From Candidatus Thalassarchaeum betae (GTDB lineage Archaea > Thermoplasmatota > Poseidoniia > Poseidoniales > Thalassarchaeaceae): 64,000 bases of DNA. Made by a program: the position numbers and the translations under genes. Below the pieces are notes generated by a model, which was given only the letters and a program-made list of their open reading frames with translations, made no database searches and had not been told where the DNA came from. The DNA is taken from assembly GCF_022448665.1 (NCBI RefSeq), contig NZ_JAKUUO010000004.1; one strand, 5' to 3'. Numbering within the stretch: position 1 is the stretch's first letter; each line of letters opens with the position of its first letter. This document shows, one piece after another, positions 54,036 to 64,000 of this stretch.

Positions 54036-55589
54036 TCATAGCGGGATGTTGCCGTGCTTGCGAGCAGGGCGAATCTCCTCTTTGTCCAGCAGGGCACCCA
54101 GCGCGCGAATCAGGACAGCCCTGCTCTGGTGCGGCTGAATCACATCATCGAGGTATCCCAGCGCCGCAGCTCTGTACGGGTTGGCAAAAGTCTCCTCGTA
54201 GTCATCAACCAGCCTCTCTCGCTCTTGCTCAGGATTGCCAGCGGTCTGAATTCTCGTTCTGTGGATGATTTGTACGGCCCCGTCAGCACCCATGACCGCA
54301 AGCCGGGCAGTTGGCCAAGCGATGTTGTAGTCGCCTCTGATGTGCTTGGAGGACATGACGTCGTAAGCCCCGCCGTAGGCCTTGCGGGTGATGACGGTGA
54401 GTTTGGGGACAGTAGCCTCGGCGTAGGCGTAGAGCAGTTTGGCACCGTGCCTGATGATGCCCCCCCACTCTTGGCTGGCCCCAGGGAGGAATCCCGGCAC
54501 GTCGACGAAAGTCAGGATTGGTACGTTGAAGGCGTCACAGAAGCGGATGAACCGAGCGGCCTTGACCGAGGCATCGATGTCGAGGCAACCGGCAAGCACC
54601 TTCGGCTGATTGGCCACGACTCCGACGGTGTGCCCGCCCAGTCGGCCGAAGCCGACGACTATGTTGTTCGCGAATTCTGCTTGAACTTCAAGGAAGGCGC
54701 CGTCGTCGAGCACCTCCTCGATGGCAGTGACGATATCGTAAGGGTGACTGGGGTTCTCCGGCACCAGCGTGTCCAGAACATCACAGAGCCGGTCATGAGG
54801 ATCAGAGGTCGGTCTGACCGGAGCCTTCTCCAGATTGTTGGAAGGCATCAGCCCTACTAACTCCCTGACAATCCCTATGGCGTCGTCGTCGTCGCTAGCG
54901 GTGAAGTGAGTCACACCAGAGCGGGTGGAGTGGGTCGAGGCCCCTCCGAGATCCTCAAAGGTCACCTCCTCATTGGTCACCGTCTTGATGACTTCTGGGC
55001 CAGTGATGAACATGTGAGCGGTCTGGTCGACCATGATAACAAAGTCGGTGATAGCTGGTGAGTACACAGCTCCACCAGCACAGGGTCCCATGATTACGGA
55101 AATCTGCGGGATGACCCCGCTGGCTCTGACGTTCCTGAAGAATATTTCAGCGTAGGAGCCGAGGCTGGCCACACCCTCCTGTATTCGGGCCCCGCCGCTG
55201 TCATTCAGGCCGATGACCGGCGCACCGGTCTTCAGCGCCATGTCGAGAATCTTACAAATCTTGAGTCCGTGCATCTCACCTAGGGAGCCGCCGTAGACCG
55301 TGAAGTCCTGAGCGAAGCAGTACACCGTCCTCCCGTCTATCGTGCCATGCCCGCAGACTACCCCGTCTCCGGGAATCACGTTACGGTCCATGTCGAAATC
55401 ACGGCATCTGTGCTCGACCAGTGTGTCGACTTCCATGAACGAGTCTTCATCGAGGAGTCGCTCGACTCTCTCTCTCGCAGTCATCTTCCCTTTGGCATGC
55501 TGCGCAGTGACCCGTGCTTGGCCACCACCTGTCTCCGCCTGCGTCTTCCTCCGCCGGAGATCCTCGATACGGTCATCCACGCCTGCCAT
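54036..55589 (-). CDS. pccB: Acyl-CoA (propionyl/methylmalonyl-CoA) carboxyltransferase subunit (PccB-like)
   Basis: N-terminus from the internal Met: [46 protein letters not shown], the canonical carboxyltransferase start. The ORF track extends to 55655. Confidence 0.8.
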
Positions 55590-55700
55590 GGTACACCGTG
55601 TGTTCGCAAAACCCCGCCAATGAGCATTCCCCATAGGAATGCTTGCTCTTTTCACGCCTCATCGGTTGCTTGAAGGGTCCCCACTAACTCGACTGCTTCG

Positions 55701-56144
55701 ATGGGAATGCGCATAGTAATGGCCAAACCCGGGCTAGACGGGCACGACAGAGGCGCTAAAGTAATCGCTAGGGCGCTCAGGGACGGCGGGCATGAAGTCG
55801 TGTACACTGGACTGCGCAAGACTCCTGAAGAAATCGTTAGAATCGTGATGGACGAAGACGCCGCCGCACTGGGCCTATCCACACTCTCAGGCGCCCATGA
55901 CGTCCTCTTGCCGGCCATCTGTGAGGGACTCAGGCGAGAGGGCCTCACTGAAGTCGTCGTCTTCGCCGGAGGAATCATTCCCAGTGGGGATCACGAATCA
56001 CTGCATGAGGATGGAGTCAGGGCAATTTTTGGCCCCGGCACCCGGACTACTGAGATACTGGACTTCCTAGAGGCCGCCAGACAGCGAATCGAGGGCGGCG
56101 AGCCCGTGGGCGTGGGTGAGAACTCGGGATGGCGATGGGAGTGA
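55701..56144 (+). CDS. Methylmalonyl-CoA mutase, small (B12-binding) subunit
   Basis: MGMRIVMAKPGLDGHDRGAKVIA (the DxHxxG B12-binding motif) and a Rossmann-like remainder. Confidence 0.8.
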   Translation: MGMRIVMAKPGLDGHDRGAKVIARALRDGGHEVVYTGLRKTPEEIVRIVMDEDAAALGLSTLSGAHDVLLPAICEGLRREGLTEVVVFAGGIIPSGDHESLHEDGVRAIFGPGTRTTEILDFLEAARQRIEGGEPVGVGENSGWRWE

Positions 56145-57007
56145 TTCCCGCCAATCTCCTTGACTCAGCTCTGACCGGCAATCGCAGGGACTTAGCGAGG
56201 ATGCTGACAGTGATAGAGAACGGAGGGGCGTTCGACATCCCGGAGCAATCCTCCTGGACCCTCGGTGTCACAGGCCCACCGGGGGTCGGCAAGTCGACCC
56301 TGATAGGCAGACTGATTTCCAATTGGGCCGACAGGGGGGAGAGAATCGCCGTCCTCGCTGTCGATCCGTCTTCTCCGCGCAGCGGTGGAGCGCTGCTAGC
56401 CGATAGAATGAGGATGAGCACAGCCGACTCCAATGATTCAGTCTTCGTACGTTCTCTGGCGACTAGGAACCACCCGGGAGGGTTGGTCTCCTGTCTATCT
56501 CCAATGATTGATGCTCTGGCAGCATGCGGCTGGAGCCGCATAGTCATCGAGACGGTAGGGGCGGGTCAAGCCGAGATAAGAGTCGTGGCGTTCGCTGACC
56601 GCATCTTACTGGTCGATGGCCCTGACAGAGGGGACATCGTCCAAGCGGAGAAGGCCGGAATCATGGAGCTGGCCGATATCGTGGCAATCAACAAGTCAGA
56701 TCTCCCTAATTCCCAGCAGGCCGCAGACTCGGTTCGCTCGGCGCTTGAGGTAGGTGGCGATTCCAGCGTCACTGTCCACTTGGTCTCTGCTCACGACGGG
56801 AGTGGAATCATTGAGTTGCTCGATGCCATCGAATCATGTCCAGCCTCAGGTGCCAGAGACCGTCTGAGGGTTCGCGAGCGTCTTCTTTCGGCATGGGACT
56901 CCCGCTTGCTCGCACACCCGCGGCTAAACGAGGTAATCGACGCTCTCGAAACCGGAAGTATAACGCTCGATGAGGCCGTCGAAATCGTCGGATTGAGTGA
57001 GGATTAG
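56129..57007 (+). CDS. meaB: MeaB/ArgK-type GTPase (methylmalonyl-CoA mutase accessory protein)
   Basis: Walker A LGVTGPPGVGKSTLIGRLI, ..VDPSSPRSGGALLADRMRM.., ..INKSDL.. Overlaps the preceding gene by 16 nt. Confidence 0.8.
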   Translation: MAMGVIPANLLDSALTGNRRDLARMLTVIENGGAFDIPEQSSWTLGVTGPPGVGKSTLIGRLISNWADRGERIAVLAVDPSSPRSGGALLADRMRMSTADSNDSVFVRSLATRNHPGGLVSCLSPMIDALAACGWSRIVIETVGAGQAEIRVVAFADRILLVDGPDRGDIVQAEKAGIMELADIVAINKSDLPNSQQAADSVRSALEVGGDSSVTVHLVSAHDGSGIIELLDAIESCPASGARDRLRVRERLLSAWDSRLLAHPRLNEVIDALETGSITLDEAVEIVGLSED

Positions 57008-59696: not shown

Positions 59697-60197
59697 CTAC
59701 CTGATCAGCCGCTGCTCGGAATCGAATCTGTTACCTTCGTGGCAGAGCAGCCACATCTTGCTGGTTCTTCCCTCACAGCCGCTGTAGTTGCCCACTCTGC
59801 CATCGCTGCGTACGACCCGGTGGCATGGTACCAGCAGGGCCCACGGGTTGCCTGCCATCACCGAGCCGACAGCTCTGCTGGCACCGCTCGAGCCGGATGC
59901 GGATGCCAAACCCCCGTACGAGACAACCCCTCCGAATGGGGCGACTTCGGATAGGGTTCCGAGTACCTTGTCCTGGAATGCAGTGAGTCCGGAGCGATCA
60001 AGTTCTGGAGGAGGGGCAGAACGGTGTTCGAAGAATGCCCTGACCCACACCTCCGTGTCTTCGATGTGATTCTGTCCGGTCGTGTAATCGTTCTCCCGGG
60101 CATCGCTCCAGCCGAGGCTGGTCAGCCCCCTTTCACTTGCGACTGCCACCATTTTTCCGAGGGGGGTTTCAATCGCCCTGATTGAATGCACGTTCAC
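59697..60197 (-). CDS. ogt: Methylated-DNA--protein-cysteine methyltransferase (Ogt/MGMT)
   Basis: Active-site LLVPCHRVVRSDGRVGNYSG (PCHR). Confidence 0.85.
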   Translation of the reverse strand: MNVHSIRAIETPLGKMVAVASERGLTSLGWSDARENDYTTGQNHIEDTEVWVRAFFEHRSAPPPELDRSGLTAFQDKVLGTLSEVAPFGGVVSYGGLASASGSSGASRAVGSVMAGNPWALLVPCHRVVRSDGRVGNYSGCEGRTSKMWLLCHEGNRFDSEQRLIR

Positions 60198-60508
60198 TGC
60201 TGCTCTTCAGGGTTCATAGGTGATTCGGAGGGATGGTCTTCTGTATGTTCTTCGATATCCTCCATACCAACTATCTCGTAGTTGGAGGGGAACAAGGCAA
60301 CGACCACGCCGGCGACGATACAGGCGAGTCCGAGCCAGAACGATTGTTGGACCACCATCAGCTCAAGTCCGATGACGAACAGCACTAAGCCACCTAGGTT
60401 CGACACCCATACTAGTGTCTTGAACGTTGAAAGGGAGACTCCGCTGGACCGCTCGGTCCTCTTCGGCCCGAACTCGGCGCCAAACCTGATGGGTTCCTCT
60501 TCCTCCAT
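60194..60508 (-). CDS. Small hypothetical membrane protein (2 TM helices)
   Basis: LVLFVIGLELMVVQQSFWLGLACIVAGVVVALF. Start overlaps ogt by 4 nt on the same strand. Confidence 0.45.
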   Translation of the reverse strand: MEEEEPIRFGAEFGPKRTERSSGVSLSTFKTLVWVSNLGGLVLFVIGLELMVVQQSFWLGLACIVAGVVVALFPSNYEIVGMEDIEEHTEDHPSESPMNPEEQQ

Positions 60509-60516
60509 GGTACCGC

Positions 60517-60849
60517 CTACCTGTCAATCATGATTATCGCATCGGTGGGACACCCTAGGGCGCATAGCCTGCAACCGGTGCACTCGTCGCGGAGTATCTT
60601 CGCCTTCCTGTTCACCTCGACATCCATGATGGGGCTAGCCATCGGAGTGTCGTAGAGTTCGATGGCGTCGTCGTCACACACTATTGTGCATTGGTCACAA
60701 CCTATGCACAATTCCTCTTTGACCCATGCAACAGCATCTTCCCCTCCTTTGAGTTTAGCCTCCTCTTCGGCGCGCATTGCATTGAGGAGCTTCCTGATGC
60801 GGCTCTGCTCAGCCGCGCGCCGTGCAAGCAGGTCGGGTATCTCCGTCAC
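60517..60849 (-). CDS. 2x[4Fe-4S] ferredoxin with a roughly 45-aa charged N-terminal extension
   Basis: CIGCDQCTIVCDDDAI and CTGCRLCALGCPTDAI. Confidence 0.75.
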   Translation of the reverse strand: MTEIPDLLARRAAEQSRIRKLLNAMRAEEEAKLKGGEDAVAWVKEELCIGCDQCTIVCDDDAIELYDTPMASPIMDVEVNRKAKILRDECTGCRLCALGCPTDAIIMIDR

Positions 60850-60955
60850 GATTCACACCAAGGCTAACCCATTCTCAATGTATGCTTCCTGCCGCCACTT
60901 AGGACAAGCTGTCATGGAGTGCTAGCGGGAGTGTCTGCTTACTACGCGTTCGTAG

Positions 60956-63739
60956 CTACCGCCTAGAATTCACTTGGCGGGCGAGGAAGCTGACAACGTC
61001 GAGAATCTCGAAATCGTGCCGAGGATCGCCCTCGAACTTCAGGCATTCGAAGTGTGCAACGCACTTCGGGCAGGTAGTAAGCATGATGTCGGCACCAGTA
61101 GCATTTACTTCGTCGAAACGCTGCAGACGCAGGGCCCTGCTGTTCTCGTTGCAGGCCATCATACTGGAGACCCCACAGCACAACGCGTCCTCGCCATGGT
61201 GCTCCATCTCGACCAGATCGACGCCGTCGACAGCCCGCACGAGGTCGCGTGGCTTGTCGTAGAGGTTCATCTGCCTACCGAGCCTGCAGGGATCGTGATA
61301 GGTCACGGTGACATCGTCATCGGTCGCTAGTTCCATGTCGAACCCCTTCTCGACAAGATACTCGGTAGTGTGCATGACCTTCATGTCGTCCAATTCGTAA
61401 TCCAGAGCGAAGGTACGGAAGCACTCGGCACAGGAGGTAACGAGAGTGTCTATACCGCTGTCTCCAAGCTTCTTCTGGTTGTACGCCTTGAGTTTCTCGA
61501 ATACCTCGGACAGTCCTTGCCACTTCTGGTCGTGGCCGCAGCACTTGAGGAAGTCACGGCCGAGGTAGGTGACATCCTCGTTCATCTCCTCGAACAGGGT
61601 GAAGGCCGCGGTCGTGGTCTCGCCGAGGTCCATCGTGCCCTCGTTGACATGGCTGAAGATCATCTCTTGGTCAATGTAGTCGACGCAACCCGGGTAGTAC
61701 CCGACGTTGGAGTCTAGAGGGTAGTCCTCAACTGAGATGAATGCCTCGTCGGCATCCTCCTCTGCCTCGGCCGCGAGAAGAGCCTGTAGCAGGGTGTGAG
61801 GTATCTCCGCAGCGGGCGGGCCACCGACGATTAGGTTGCGTCGGATGTCGATGTACGAGTCGTAGTCGACCAACTGCGGGCAGGCGTTGGTGCAGGCGGT
61901 GCAAGTCAGACAGGAGTACAGAGGGACACCGTCATCCTCGTTGTTCCAAGTGTTGTAGATGATATTCAGCTTGTCTCCAGCGGTGAACAGGCGGACCGGG
62001 CAGGCATCATCGCACAAGTCGCATCCGTAGCACTTGTTCATCTCCCACTCGTAACCTCGAGCCATGCTCCGCATGACTAGGAAGACGATAGCGCCTACTC
62101 CGAGGCACGGTATGAAAAGCGTGTAGATGAGTTTGGCATCCAATGTTTTCGGGTTTTTGTGATAAGTTGGATTCTCGACCGAGAGCACCACCAACTCCTC
62201 TAGGCTCAGACTGGATTCCGAGCGAGTCAATGCAGTGCCGTCCTCAGCCAGCATAAGTGGCTGGTACGCAACAGCAGAGAAGTCCGCGATCATTGAAACA
62301 GAGTCGTCAGCACCATCCGATGAGGATGAGAAACTCACAGTGTAACTGGCACCCGATGGCAGGTATAGGGTGGTGGATTGGCAAACACCACCCTCATTCT
62401 GCCACAGTATGCTGCCTGAGGAGTCGGTGAGTGAGATGCTCTGCGTGTGAGTGCCTGCCCCCCTAACCGTGGTTCTGAAGTTGCACCACACATCCGCAGG
62501 GACACTTGAGACACCTAGGTCCTCTACCTCAAAAGTTCTGCTCTCGCCGACCGTCAACAAAGAACCATCAGCGTTTCCAACATAGGTGATTTCCATTCCC
62601 CCGTAATTCCTTCCGGTTTCGGAATCAGCGTGTCCATTATCACCAGCGAAGTCAATCAGGACGGTTCGCGTAGGCTGGTAGATCCCCCAATTCACCCAAT
62701 TCGCAGCAGCTATCAGGCACCAGTCATCCGTATCCTCGTCATTACCCAAATCATCCCACGCGGCTTGCCCCATCGTCTCGGAGTATGGTAGGCAATCGTC
62801 CTCCCATTCTGCCCAGACATTTCCTTTGCCTTGGTGCACGAGGGTGTCCGAGGGTTGTCCCCTCATGGCATCCAATTGAGAGACGTCATCCATCGCGCCT
62901 AGTCCGCCGTAGTCCCAGAAACCGTCGTCGTAGATAGGCCACGTGACCACAGAAATCAGAACCGCAGCAATCAAGGAACCAATCGCAATCTGCCTTCCCA
63001 TAACGGGATTGAGCCTCGCCCCAATGGAATTGAGGGTGAACCACCTCACGCCGAAGTAGATGACGGCGAAGACGAAGATGCCAGTCAGCACCCAGGGTAT
63101 GGCGTTGAACACCTCTGCCGTCCATGGGGCCTGCCTCCCGCAGAACAGAGCGCTGTGTGAATTGATCCAGCAGTAGTTGCTCAGGTCCTTGGAGTACAGT
63201 TCGAGGAAGATGTTGATCGAGAACACCGAGATGAACCAGACGTGGGCCAGATAGACCGCGCCCGCGGTGGCGAACCACGGATCCTCGACACCACGCTTCT
63301 CTCTCCCCCCGAGGAACGGGGGCAGAGCGAGAATGCCTACGGGGAAACCGGTCAGGAAGGCGCCCCACCAACCGGCGTTCCATGCTATCACGGGCGTACC
63401 GAAGAAGGCCCCTATGGGTCCAGCTGGAATCACGTACTGAGGGAGATACTCCCCCCATCTCAGGTACCCATAGGAGAACAGCACGTACCAGTCAGGGAAG
63501 ACGAAGCCCGCTTGGGCGAACGGATCTGCTGCGCTGTGCAGCGGAGGGGGGATTATCCACGAGTAGAACGCGATGACTGCCATCATCGCAGCCAGTATGA
63601 TACTGTCACGAAGCACCTCAGTGGGCCAGAAGGAGTGCCCGACGAACACCCTTTTCCTTTCTTCGTCGGCCTCGAGCAACTGGTCCCTCTCGCTGATGTA
63701 GGTGTCAGCAATCCTCCCGAACTTGTCTATCATCCCCAT
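60956..63739 (-). CDS. Fusion protein (927 aa). Cytochrome b C-terminal half (subunit-IV-like), extra TM helices, a roughly 270-aa Cys-containing soluble domain, a TM helix, then an HdrD/GlpC-like module (2x CxxCxxCxxxCP and 2x CCG domains).
   Basis: ..PFAQAGFVFPDWYVLFSYGYLRWGEYLP (the PEWY-type motif). CYGCDLCDDACP and CLTCTACTNACP. CCG domains ..YYPGC..FLKCCGHD..TSCAECF and ..YHDPC..ALCCGVSS..TTCPKCV. Confidence 0.7.
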   Translation of the reverse strand: MGMIDKFGRIADTYISERDQLLEADEERKRVFVGHSFWPTEVLRDSIILAAMMAVIAFYSWIIPPPLHSAADPFAQAGFVFPDWYVLFSYGYLRWGEYLPQYVIPAGPIGAFFGTPVIAWNAGWWGAFLTGFPVGILALPPFLGGREKRGVEDPWFATAGAVYLAHVWFISVFSINIFLELYSKDLSNYCWINSHSALFCGRQAPWTAEVFNAIPWVLTGIFVFAVIYFGVRWFTLNSIGARLNPVMGRQIAIGSLIAAVLISVVTWPIYDDGFWDYGGLGAMDDVSQLDAMRGQPSDTLVHQGKGNVWAEWEDDCLPYSETMGQAAWDDLGNDEDTDDWCLIAAANWVNWGIYQPTRTVLIDFAGDNGHADSETGRNYGGMEITYVGNADGSLLTVGESRTFEVEDLGVSSVPADVWCNFRTTVRGAGTHTQSISLTDSSGSILWQNEGGVCQSTTLYLPSGASYTVSFSSSSDGADDSVSMIADFSAVAYQPLMLAEDGTALTRSESSLSLEELVVLSVENPTYHKNPKTLDAKLIYTLFIPCLGVGAIVFLVMRSMARGYEWEMNKCYGCDLCDDACPVRLFTAGDKLNIIYNTWNNEDDGVPLYSCLTCTACTNACPQLVDYDSYIDIRRNLIVGGPPAAEIPHTLLQALLAAEAEEDADEAFISVEDYPLDSNVGYYPGCVDYIDQEMIFSHVNEGTMDLGETTTAAFTLFEEMNEDVTYLGRDFLKCCGHDQKWQGLSEVFEKLKAYNQKKLGDSGIDTLVTSCAECFRTFALDYELDDMKVMHTTEYLVEKGFDMELATDDDVTVTYHDPCRLGRQMNLYDKPRDLVRAVDGVDLVEMEHHGEDALCCGVSSMMACNENSRALRLQRFDEVNATGADIMLTTCPKCVAHFECLKFEGDPRHDFEILDVVSFLARQVNSRR

Positions 63740-63751
63740 CTCATTACCTCC

Positions 63752-64000
63752 TCAATGCGGCTCCGCTATGCCCTGAACCCAGACTATGAACAGATGGGCG
63801 AGAATCAGCGCGGTCACAATCACAGGCAGGATGAACACGTGAAGGAAGTACATTCTGACGACGGTCTGTGCAGACAGGGTCGTGCCGGCGAACAGGGCTT
63901 TGGCCACCCAACTCCCAATCAACGGAGTCGAGTTGGCCATGTTGATGCCAATGGTAGCCGCGCCGAATGCGAGACTGTCCCAAGGCAGCAGGTAACCCGA
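63752..64000 (-). CDS. Cytochrome b, N-terminal (b6-like) heme-binding half. 5'-partial: it runs off the window end.
   Basis: The reverse frame is open to nt 64000: ..SGYLLPWDSLAFGAATIGINMANSTPLIGSWV..VRMYFLHVFILPVIVTALILAHLFIVW matches cyt b helices C-D (LPWGQMSFWGATVITN.. / RFFAFHFILPF..HLLFLH). Stop lies 13 nt before the next gene. Confidence 0.75.
   Translation of the reverse strand, partial: SGYLLPWDSLAFGAATIGINMANSTPLIGSWVAKALFAGTTLSAQTVVRMYFLHVFILPVIVTALILAHLFIVWVQGIAEPH

Follow-up and report, generated by a model that had tools for sequence, protein, structure and literature searches.

We report that a 927-aa protein of Candidatus Thalassarchaeum betae, a Marine Group II (MGII) archaeon, is an uncharacterised combination of a cytochrome b6f-type Rieske/cytochrome b complex and a heterodisulfide reductase (Hdr)-like CCG electron-transfer module, and that this module recurs widely across Thermoplasmatota and extends to other archaeal lineages. 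The gene lies in a stretch of 64,000 nt (assembly GCF_022448665.1, contig NZ_JAKUUO010000004.1; G+C 57.9%), referred to here in its entirety as the window, which carries the 3' half of a conserved archaeal operon whose 5' part lies beyond the window edge. The order of this operon is anchored ectoprotein, DUF7318 protein, Rieske protein, cytochrome b6, the 927-aa fusion, an RnfB-like ferredoxin and a small membrane protein, with the upstream genes read on L001, one of four fetched contigs (85-91 kb) that encode an identical fusion protein. Comparative genomics and structural analogy lead us to propose that the fusion wires a cytoplasmic carrier to complex III, most likely carrying electrons from ferredoxin to the n-side heme and quinone-reduction site, a reading to which we would give about an even chance of being correct.

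Alignment of the MGII proteins (long forms) with shorter relatives (short forms) indicates that the MGII protein is a full fusion of subunit IV, Fe-S and CCG parts into which two helices and an ectodomain have been inserted before the last helix. The parts of the fusion and its immediate neighbors are located as follows.

63752..64000, minus strand: cytochrome b6-like gene, 3' end (final 82 codons and the stop); the frame continues past the window edge.
60956..63739, minus strand: open reading frame (ORF) of the 927-aa fusion protein, starting 13 nt after the cytochrome b6 stop.
63185..63739, minus strand: residues 1-185 of the fusion, homologue of subunit IV (SUIV) or the cytochrome b C-terminal part, helices E, F and G (profile and phmmer).
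62915..63184, minus strand: residues 186-275, outside loop and two extra transmembrane (TM) helices (hydropathy, alignment of long and short forms).
62135..62914, minus strand: residues 276-535, extracytoplasmic beta-sandwich ectodomain (AF2 fold, conservation).
62054..62134, minus strand: residues 536-562, last TM helix (out to in), equal to helix H, the fourth of the short forms (alignment).
61820..62053, minus strand: residues 563-640, HdrC-like ferredoxin domain with two CxxCxxCxxxCP motifs (Pfam Fer4_8, Fer4_9, Fer4_10).
60959..61819, minus strand: residues 641-927, two HdrB/HdrD-type CCG domains (Pfam CCG 3.6e-22, two stretches).
60517..60849, minus strand: ORF of the RnfB-like 2x[4Fe-4S] ferredoxin, 110 aa, 106 nt downstream of the fusion gene.

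Homology of the fusion N-terminus to SUIV and the C-terminal half of cytochrome b is solid as judged by sequence comparison, because a search of PDB sequences, a family profile and relatives that pass a Pfam threshold all agree. A direct Pfam scan found no match for residues 1-272 or for the ectodomain even at an E-value of 10. Searching the fusion with phmmer against all PDB sequences gave three matches only, all of them b6f subunit IV (best E 0.011), with PEWY aligned opposite the PDWY of the fusion and the WP motif before helix E kept. A profile (A3) that combines the window sequence with three MGII homologues and seven short forms matches 44 PDB chains, every one a cytochrome b C-terminal half or a subunit IV, the best being residues 232-358 of Rhodobacter cytochrome b (1.2e-12) and b6f subunit IV scoring 4e-09. 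When residues 1-290 were searched with HMMER against 1.84 billion representatives, only 97 proteins were returned; distant relatives (30-42% identity) pass the gathering score of Pfam Cytochrom_B_C (PF00032), and most of these also hold Fer4 and two CCG domains, such as P0180 (543 aa) and P0184 (570 aa). The Qo-loop motif PDWY occupies residues 82-85 (63485-63496) in the loop after the first hydrophobic segment, and P82, D83 and W84 are invariant in an alignment of 60 long and short forms.

The gene immediately upstream supplies the other half of the cytochrome. Its in-window end translates to ..LPWDSLAFGAATIGIN..RMYFLHVFILPVIVTALILAHLF.., with the stop at 63752 (a translation of the cut-off frame also reads ..GYLLPWDSLAFGAATIGIN...RMYFLHVFILPVIVTALILAHLFIVWVQGIAEPH), and covers the last part of helix C, then the cd loop, and helix D with its two heme-ligand His. 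This fragment matches Pfam Cytochrom_B_N_2 (4.5e-21) and Cytochrome_B (1.5e-14), plus the NCBIfam cytochrome b6 model. The complete gene, seen in the identical contigs (288 aa, L001:9122-9988), is closest to chloroplast and cyanobacterial cytochrome b6 (3.9e-40) and keeps all four heme-ligand His. It also carries the sequence YCLGG, which aligns with the region of b6 Cys35, the Cys that binds heme cn/ci; YCLGG would accordingly be the CxGG motif of cytochrome b6 and a putative site for covalent heme ci. Just past the window edge, immediately upstream of cytochrome b, lies a Rieske gene (284 aa, L001:8258-9112) with a twin-arginine-type N-terminus (RREFMRH) and the boxes CPHLCC and CICHSSRYD. 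A profile (A4) of this protein and its orthologues matches 46 PDB chains, all bc/b6f Rieske subunits or related Rieske proteins (best 7.7e-08). An earlier note on this DNA, drawn from the window alone, had reported no Rieske gene downstream, the upstream side being outside the window; one is present upstream beyond position 64000; with a Rieske gene there and a full cytochrome b6, we read the locus as encoding a complete b6-type Rieske/cytochrome b complex.

In its core this complex resembles b6f and the split Rieske/cytochrome b6 complexes (PetB/PetD/PetC; heliobacterial, Firmicute and haloarchaeal 'green clade'), with which it shares a four-helix b6 carrying four His and CxGG, a separately encoded subunit IV bearing a P(D/E)WY loop, and the order Rieske, b6, SUIV. 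Unlike in those complexes, SUIV here is extended by three further TM helices and an ectodomain and ends in a cytoplasmic Fe-S module of 365 aa, and an anchored ectoprotein with a GCxCH motif and a DUF7318 protein stand in place of cytochrome f/c1.

The entire Fe-S module is contained in the C-terminal 365 residues of the fusion. Its ferredoxin domain provides two sets of Fer4 ligands, C570/573/576/580 and C610/613/616/620 (Fer4_8 score 2.8e-07), and each CCG domain has a five-Cys set: C685, C733-C734 and C770xxC773 in the first, and C818, C854-C855 and C890xxC893 in the second, which has C863 and C899 in addition. Across the 60 aligned sequences the eight Fer4 Cys are invariant and the ten CCG-signature Cys are conserved, nine of them invariantly and C734 in at least 90%; some relatives have CVG or CTG for CCG in the first domain. 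Among solved sequences the closest to the module is EtfD of M. smegmatis (9ojn, 4.1e-21), followed by an HdrC2 chain, and a Foldseek search against PDB likewise placed EtfD first (1.2e-14), then LutA and several HdrB chains. The best NCBIfam match of the fusion is TfrB (6e-30, 104 bits vs a cut-off of 385), and the protein stays under every curated NCBIfam cut-off (e.g., DsrK 32 vs 400 and GlpC 41 vs 278 bits). Database names for the fusion and its relatives are generic: 'Fe-S oxidoreductase', 'heterodisulfide reductase-related iron-sulfur binding cluster' and 'Cysteine-rich domain protein'.

Much of what the earlier note had read from the letters alone is borne out by these searches: cytochrome b helices C-D in a gene that ends at 63752, a second gene at 60956..63739 with a cytochrome b C-terminal signature (the motif being PDWY), a soluble domain with four Cys followed by a further TM helix (found here as a ~260-aa insert and a helix at 537-560), two CxxCxxCxxxCP motifs (570 and 610), two CCG motifs (733 and 854), and a ferredoxin gene 106 nt downstream. 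Its placement of the ectodomain outside and the Fe-S module inside also agrees with the topology that we predict from hydropathy only, in which the N-terminus is inside and six TM helices are formed by the hydrophobic segments at 43-65, 125-145, 155-183, 210-235, 246-270 and 537-560. An inside N-terminus, which subunit IV also has, and six helices would place the soluble insert outside and the Fe-S module inside; inside is the only compartment expected for such clusters, so the topology is self-consistent. The two extra helices within residues 186-275 are missing from the short-form relatives, and C190...H195...C200, in the loop after the third helix, are conserved among the MGII long forms.

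The join between membrane and Fe-S parts is common to long and short forms: a junction of the form R-G-Y-E-x-x-M/L-N-x-C-Y-x-C runs the last TM helix into the first Fe-S motif, and L537 and Y563 are invariant across both. About ten residues lead from the return helix to the first [4Fe-4S] motif, and from this short, conserved linker it follows that the first cluster must sit at the membrane surface, as in EtfD. A full-length AF2 model on the 60-sequence alignment reached a mean pLDDT of 74.7 (80-90 in the CCG region and 45-80 in the TM part).

That separate SUIV and HdrD genes were joined by an assembly error or a frameshift, a worry raised in the earlier note, has in its favor that the split form is natural, the CCG part being a separate gene in Marine Group III (MGIII). 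However, an identical 927-aa protein is indexed in 216 blocks of the sequence collection on contigs from independent samples, hundreds of Poseidoniales homologues (926-936 aa, 77-100% identity) from independent assemblies share the same architecture, and the junction consists of an intact TM helix and a conserved linker. We therefore rejected an artefact on the strength of the independently assembled homologues, regarding the fusion as genuine and the chance of a spurious join as vanishingly small. Where a source name is given, homologues of the fusion are labelled Candidatus Poseidoniales, Thalassarchaeum or marine group II/III euryarchaeote. Two scaffolds that encode the identical fusion protein have runs of N in the spacer between fusion and ferredoxin genes (L002:12785-12958 and L003:12785-13045), the L003 spacer also having a short duplicated stretch; a biological insertion as the cause of these spacer lengths was rejected, as runs of N are scaffolding gaps.

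To map the family beyond MGII, we used both protein and genome searches. A second database search seeded with a short form returned proteins of 543-690 aa with Cytochrom_B_C, Fer4 and CCG domains from metagenome-assembled genomes (MAGs) of Thermoplasmata and Geothermarchaeales. The short-form motif LPDWY[LF][LI]W, which does not match the MGII sequence, was sought in 185,579 species genomes and found at 77 loci, which were annotated by ORF calling and phmmer against reference proteins. The order ectoprotein, DUF7318, Rieske, cytochrome b6 and SUIV is nearly universal in these loci. The full fusion is present in 8 of the 77 (Bathyarchaeia, Geothermarchaeales, several Thermoplasmata and unclassified archaea), while in 43 of 77 a gene for SUIV plus Fer4 (340-450 aa) is followed by a separate CCG protein (295-330 aa); the latter arrangement is found in MGIII/Poseidoniia, Thermoplasmata and MAGs labelled Methanomassiliicoccales, with an RnfB-like gene after the CCG gene wherever the contig reaches far enough. 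SUIV stands alone in about 20 loci, from Halobacteriales (including the cultured Halospeciosus flavus), Thermoplasmatales, Hydrothermarchaeota and others. Looked for in related MAGs, as the earlier note had suggested, the module is thus found fused or adjacent across Thermoplasmatota, Bathyarchaeia and Geothermarchaeales.

The separate CCG proteins match the fused CCG part at ~1e-70 and another HdrD-like protein in the data at ~1e-20. Because they are far closer to each other than to that protein, we take the separate and fused CCG proteins to be one subunit, split or fused. Such a Rosetta-stone pattern, with the same part fused in some lineages and encoded by an adjacent gene in others, is strong evidence that the CCG module belongs physically to the complex. 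Two MGIII-type operons sit in MAGs labelled Chloroflexota and Nitrosomonadaceae (L030 and L034), labels that most likely reflect binning contamination.

The genes that follow the module point to its likely cytoplasmic partners. An RnfB-like dicluster ferredoxin is the next gene after the module in MGII, MGIII and many Thermoplasmata. In the window it is a 110-aa protein with a charged N-terminal helix that matches Pfam Fer4_21 (1.5e-12) and scores 47.2 bits against the rnfB model TIGR01944, not reaching the cut-off of 68.7. No rnf genes were found in the flanks of the fusion locus, and MGII have been described as lacking RnfACDEG and having an orphan RnfB (PMC6336850). In MGIII the RnfB-like domain is the C-terminal part of a larger protein whose N-terminal part is a flavodoxin (Flavodoxin_1 9e-27, L022:9945-10931) or, in other MGIII, a second dicluster ferredoxin (L013:9802-10647). 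As ferredoxin and flavodoxin are interchangeable low-potential carriers, their fusion to this domain suggests that it may serve as an adaptor between such carriers and the module.

Other relatives carry different cytoplasmic additions. In a Methanosarcinales MAG, a 531-aa protein encoded directly after the Rieske and cytochrome b genes (L056:7989-9581) combines SUIV (Cytochrom_B_C 4.2e-11) with two Fer4 motifs and an FrhB/FdhB F420-binding domain (1.4e-38), and by its domain content would be part of an F420-linked Rieske/cytochrome b complex. Full-fusion lineages have an HdrA2-like gene (989-1071 bits vs the HdrA2 model) and an MvhD/FlpD-like gene downstream, one full-fusion locus also having HdrC and an HdrB that passes its TIGRFAM cut-off, and three Thermoplasmata loci (L005, L011 and L020) have a polyferredoxin-MvhD protein downstream. 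The lineages with HdrA/MvhD/HdrBC-type genes after the fusion are Bathyarchaeia, Geothermarchaeales and Thermoplasmata; no HdrA was found in the window lineage (window and fetched contigs). With HdrD-like, Fer4-only and FrhB ports attached to it, and HdrA/MvhD genes directly downstream in some relatives, the SUIV C-terminus would appear to be a recurrent attachment point for cytoplasmic redox modules.

In the mechanism that we favor, the RnfB-like protein would dock soluble ferredoxin or flavodoxin to the module, whose two cubane and two CCG clusters would conduct electrons between low-potential carriers and the n-side heme (bn/ci) or Qi site. A parallel exists in EtfD and HdrDE, whose equivalent module lies beneath a membrane heme. 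With inward flow, the Qi side would receive electrons from ferredoxin that catabolic 2-oxoacid oxidoreductases have reduced, and the complex would act as a ferredoxin-oxidising, proton-motive complex III. This would amount to a hard-wired version of the route from ferredoxin to heme cn proposed for cyclic electron flow through b6f—a route that is only proposed there, and without a fused domain. More speculatively, one Qi electron could come from ferredoxin and one from heme bn, giving net transfer from ferredoxin to a periplasmic acceptor at 2 H+ per electron and no net quinol use, as long discussed for b6f cyclic flow.

The inward direction is favored because MGII catabolism would yield reduced ferredoxin, because FrhB and flavodoxin/ferredoxin fusions are typical input modules, because EtfD, the structural precedent, works inward, and because quinone reduction would be the natural exergonic branch where HdrA modules occur. 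In archaea that live on proteins and fatty acids, 2-oxoacid oxidation generates reduced ferredoxin. An aerobic, heterotrophic life on proteins and fatty acids has been described for MGII (PMC6336850). The earlier note had electrons running from quinol to ferredoxin; nothing that we found supports this direction, and the fusions and HdrA/MvhD neighbors fit input at least as well.

A pattern in cytochrome b also bears on the n-side site. Aligning the cytochrome b genes from all loci to score the heme-ci position, we found the Cys of CxGG in 25 of the 55 loci with an Fe-S module. By lineage, the position reads YCLGG in MGII, in several Thermoplasmata and in some Poseidoniia. Where archaeal loci have a complete SUIV ORF, this Cys is confined to those with the Fe-S module (25 loci) and is absent from every SUIV-only locus; the latter have YTLGS or YALGS/G at that position (haloarchaea, Thermoplasmatales); of the apparent exceptions, two are ORFs cut by contig ends and the third is from a Bacillota MAG. 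This association, although one-sided, suggests that the n-side heme pocket may be functionally linked to the module.

Several observations weigh against the favored mechanism. The sequence puts no constraint on the direction of electron flow, and the TM part of the AF2 model is too low in confidence to show how SUIV and the Fe-S domain pack. Ser replaces the heme-ci Cys in 30 of the 55 module-bearing loci (YSLGG in 28 MGIII-type loci), so that a covalent heme ci is not required for the module. Finally, both CCG domains keep the complete HdrB-type Cys signature, unlike EtfD, where one Cys is lost and a His added, and this leaves room for a catalytic thiol/disulfide site.

Such a site would make the module a true Hdr-type enzyme, in which the CCG clusters reduce or form a cytoplasmic disulfide while exchanging electrons with the quinone pool through the complex. 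Consistent with this, all five Cys of the HdrB pattern are kept in both CCG domains, the fold matches HdrB, the best NCBIfam match (far under its cut-off, as given above) is a subunit of a thiol-dependent fumarate reductase, and a GcvH-like gene lies downstream of a second HdrD-like gene in a Geothermarchaeales locus. Candidate substrates would be a small thiol pair or a carrier of the DsrC or lipoate-protein type, in parallel with HdrDE and DsrMK, which act via NarI-type cytochromes. No gene for a thiol or disulfide substrate is conserved in the MGII and MGIII operons, however, where a ferredoxin is the conserved partner; the CVG or CTG that some relatives have in the first domain recalls the non-catalytic EtfD, and many CCG proteins of aerobes (GlpC, LutA, SdhE) are generally known not to be disulfide reductases. 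On balance we consider a catalytic Hdr-type site unlikely.

The module differs in several ways from systems that it resembles. Known CCG membrane modules partner NarI-type cytochromes. The fusion shares with HdrDE, DsrMK, HmeCD and QmoC the placement of HdrC-like 2x[4Fe-4S] and HdrB-like CCG domains on a membrane heme protein, but its membrane partner is a Rieske/cytochrome b6 complex with SUIV and not a NarI/HdrE-type diheme cytochrome b, MGII offer neither a methanogenic nor a sulfate-reducing context, and the conserved partner is ferredoxin. EtfD (9ojn) is likewise a single polypeptide with TM helices, two cubane and two CCG clusters, adapted to aerobes, and its cluster chain runs from the cytoplasm to a [4Fe-4S] cluster about 7 A from a membrane heme b and on to menaquinone (PMC13083937). 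Its first CCG domain has Cys-Thr and holds a linear [3Fe-4S] cluster, and His583 completes the second cluster (PMC13083937). In contrast, the fusion keeps CC in both CCG domains and has CAEC at the corresponding position, and it has an SUIV-like membrane part where EtfD has a five-helix mono-heme NarI-like domain.

As EtfD is the closest solved homologue of the C-terminal module, and MGII carry acyl-CoA dehydrogenases (PMC6336850), the CCG end might instead dock ETF from fatty-acid or amino-acid oxidation, or another dehydrogenase, and pass electrons to the quinone site. This seems quite improbable: the operon and its 10-kb flanks contain no etf genes, the conserved neighbor is of ferredoxin type and in MGIII is fused to flavodoxin or ferredoxin, and the EtfD-specific ligands (Cys-Thr and His583) are absent.

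The wiring that we favor for ferredoxin input is in principle reversible, and would equally serve a bifurcating mode in which quinol is oxidised at Qo, one electron enters the Rieske branch and the other passes via bL, bH/ci and the Fe-S chain to ferredoxin. The second Rieske box of MGII, CICHSSRY, has the Ser/Tyr pattern generally known from high-potential Rieske proteins, and with a low-potential quinone the second electron could approach the potential of ferredoxin; the HdrA/MvhD neighbors of relatives are bifurcation modules. A comparable route has been put forward for the Rieske/cytochrome b complexes of anammox bacteria, which are proposed to make NAD(P)H in this way (PMC12954380). Against this, MGII catabolism would already yield reduced ferredoxin, with no obvious need for more, and the FrhB, flavodoxin and ferredoxin fusions are typical of input modules. 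To our knowledge, no Rieske/cytochrome b complex has been shown to carry out quinol-driven ferredoxin reduction. We regard bifurcation as thermodynamically conceivable but unlikely, less likely than flow from ferredoxin into the complex. A reversible, quinone-based bifurcating machine, in which a high-potential Rieske/oxidase branch would pull quinol oxidation and the second electron would end on ferredoxin or flavodoxin, and whose reverse reaction would be ferredoxin oxidation coupled to extra proton translocation, strikes us as similarly unlikely. If it were true, this would be the first Rieske/cytochrome b complex with a defined low-potential cytoplasmic port, and a natural model for the disputed ferredoxin/heme-cn route of b6f cyclic electron flow.

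Accessory subunits of the anammox complexes are NAD(P)-linked and multiheme. Those complexes are like the one described here in having a Rieske/cytochrome b core with unusual redox partners and a proposed low-potential cytoplasmic acceptor (PMC12954380), and differ in being bacterial and without a CCG module, their function being likewise unproven. A closer parallel within the same phylum is an Angelarchaeales genome (Thermoplasmata), for which a single sentence notes hdrD-like and rnfB-like genes next to complex III as a possible ferredoxin entry point (Diamond et al. 2022, PMC9038741). The gene set near cytochrome b is the same, compared by description only; no SUIV fusion, domain analysis or distribution is given there. 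The suggestion in the earlier note that the architecture was undescribed therefore stands in part: we found no description of the SUIV-HdrD fusion, its distribution or its variants in a literature search that left most subscription journals outside, and no mention of the fusion in a paper on the 'unusual Rieske/cytb' of Methanoperedens, a review of cytochrome bc phylogenomics or papers on haloarchaea, but the architecture is not unique to this locus and its neighborhood had been noted for Angelarchaeales.

These results bear on a gap in the picture of MGII, which with MGIII are among the most abundant archaea of the surface ocean and were without cultured isolates (Tully 2019, PMC6336850). Their genomes were reported to encode cytochrome b and Rieske proteins but no canonical bc1, leaving an 'MGII-specific complex III' and an orphan RnfB unexplained (PMC6336850). 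Our analysis would tie the two together, with the RnfB-like protein as the partner of an Hdr-like module in complex III. It also bears on the role of heme ci, on ferredoxin injection at the Qi side and on low-potential acceptors for Rieske/cytochrome b complexes, as proposed for anammox, and offers conserved, concrete targets for structural work.

The ectodomain of the fusion is an acidic insert of ~260 aa between the fifth and sixth hydrophobic segments, with Cys316/341/419/453. Its AF2 model consists mostly of beta strands (pLDDT 85-95), and Foldseek matched it to generic beta-sandwiches only (GOLD, MAM and a subtilisin C-terminal jelly-roll, ~1e-4). The sequence is poorly kept across 36 MGII long forms, with only C419, C453 and H370 conserved and C316/C341 lineage-specific, and neither conservation nor the fold search revealed a metal- or heme-binding signature. 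A redox role, cupredoxin-like or cytochrome f-like, was rejected given the generic folds and the conservation of only two Cys and one His in MGII; judging from the model, the ectodomain is probably a fast-evolving structural surface domain off the electron path. Similar additions occur in relatives: three Thermoplasmata loci encode a cytochrome b of 870-877 aa with a large N-terminal extension that contains a Big_5 domain (L005:4343-6973, L011:1169-3802 and L020:5234-7849), such an extension measuring ~630 aa in one cytochrome b, and the SUIV relative P0182 bears a Laminin_G_3 domain in place of the Fe-S module. Beta-sandwich ectodomains seem to have been added repeatedly to membrane subunits of this complex.

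The remaining genes of the operon are the following.

L001:6994-7809, same strand as the fusion: anchored ectoprotein, 271 aa, first operon gene, with a signal peptide and a C-terminal TM anchor.
Between the anchored ectoprotein and the Rieske gene, same strand as the fusion: DUF7318 protein, 149 aa (fetched contigs).
60194..60508, minus strand: ORF of a 104-aa protein with two predicted TM helices, separated from the ferredoxin gene by 8 nt.

The operon encodes neither cytochrome c1 nor cytochrome f. The 271-aa ectoprotein has no PDB or Pfam match; its C-terminal TM anchor is conserved, as is an ectodomain motif G-C-x-C-H (GCTCHNE in MGII), whose CxCH is not a standard heme c motif. Homologues are present at seven further loci (L012, L013, L055, L060, L062, L064 and L067), one Cys of GCxCH being absent in some, and at L058, L072 and L084 the same anchor bears a cupredoxin-like domain instead (YYCxIH..M). 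From these motifs the ectoprotein looks like a candidate periplasmic electron acceptor whose redox domains are swappable.

Ser and Tyr positions in the second Rieske box mark high-potential Rieske proteins. This box reads CICHSSRY in MGII vs CRCHDGIF or CPCHDGIF in the HdrA-carrying Geothermarchaeales and L007 loci (L001:8258-9112 vs L006:594-1262), a difference that hints at different operating potentials.

At the other end of the operon, the 104-aa two-TM protein matched no family in a Pfam scan and has homologues at the same position in five MGIII-type loci (L045, L049, L051, L052 and L064); it may tentatively be regarded as an extra membrane subunit. An O6-methylguanine methyltransferase gene overlaps its gene by 4 nt. 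Further downstream (54036-57007 of the window) lies a methylmalonyl-CoA pathway cluster of a carboxyltransferase (539 aa), a B12-binding mutase small subunit and a MeaB GTPase, and between this cluster and the respiratory operon are genes for a multi-TM protein of 217 aa, not assigned to a family, and for an asparagine synthase.

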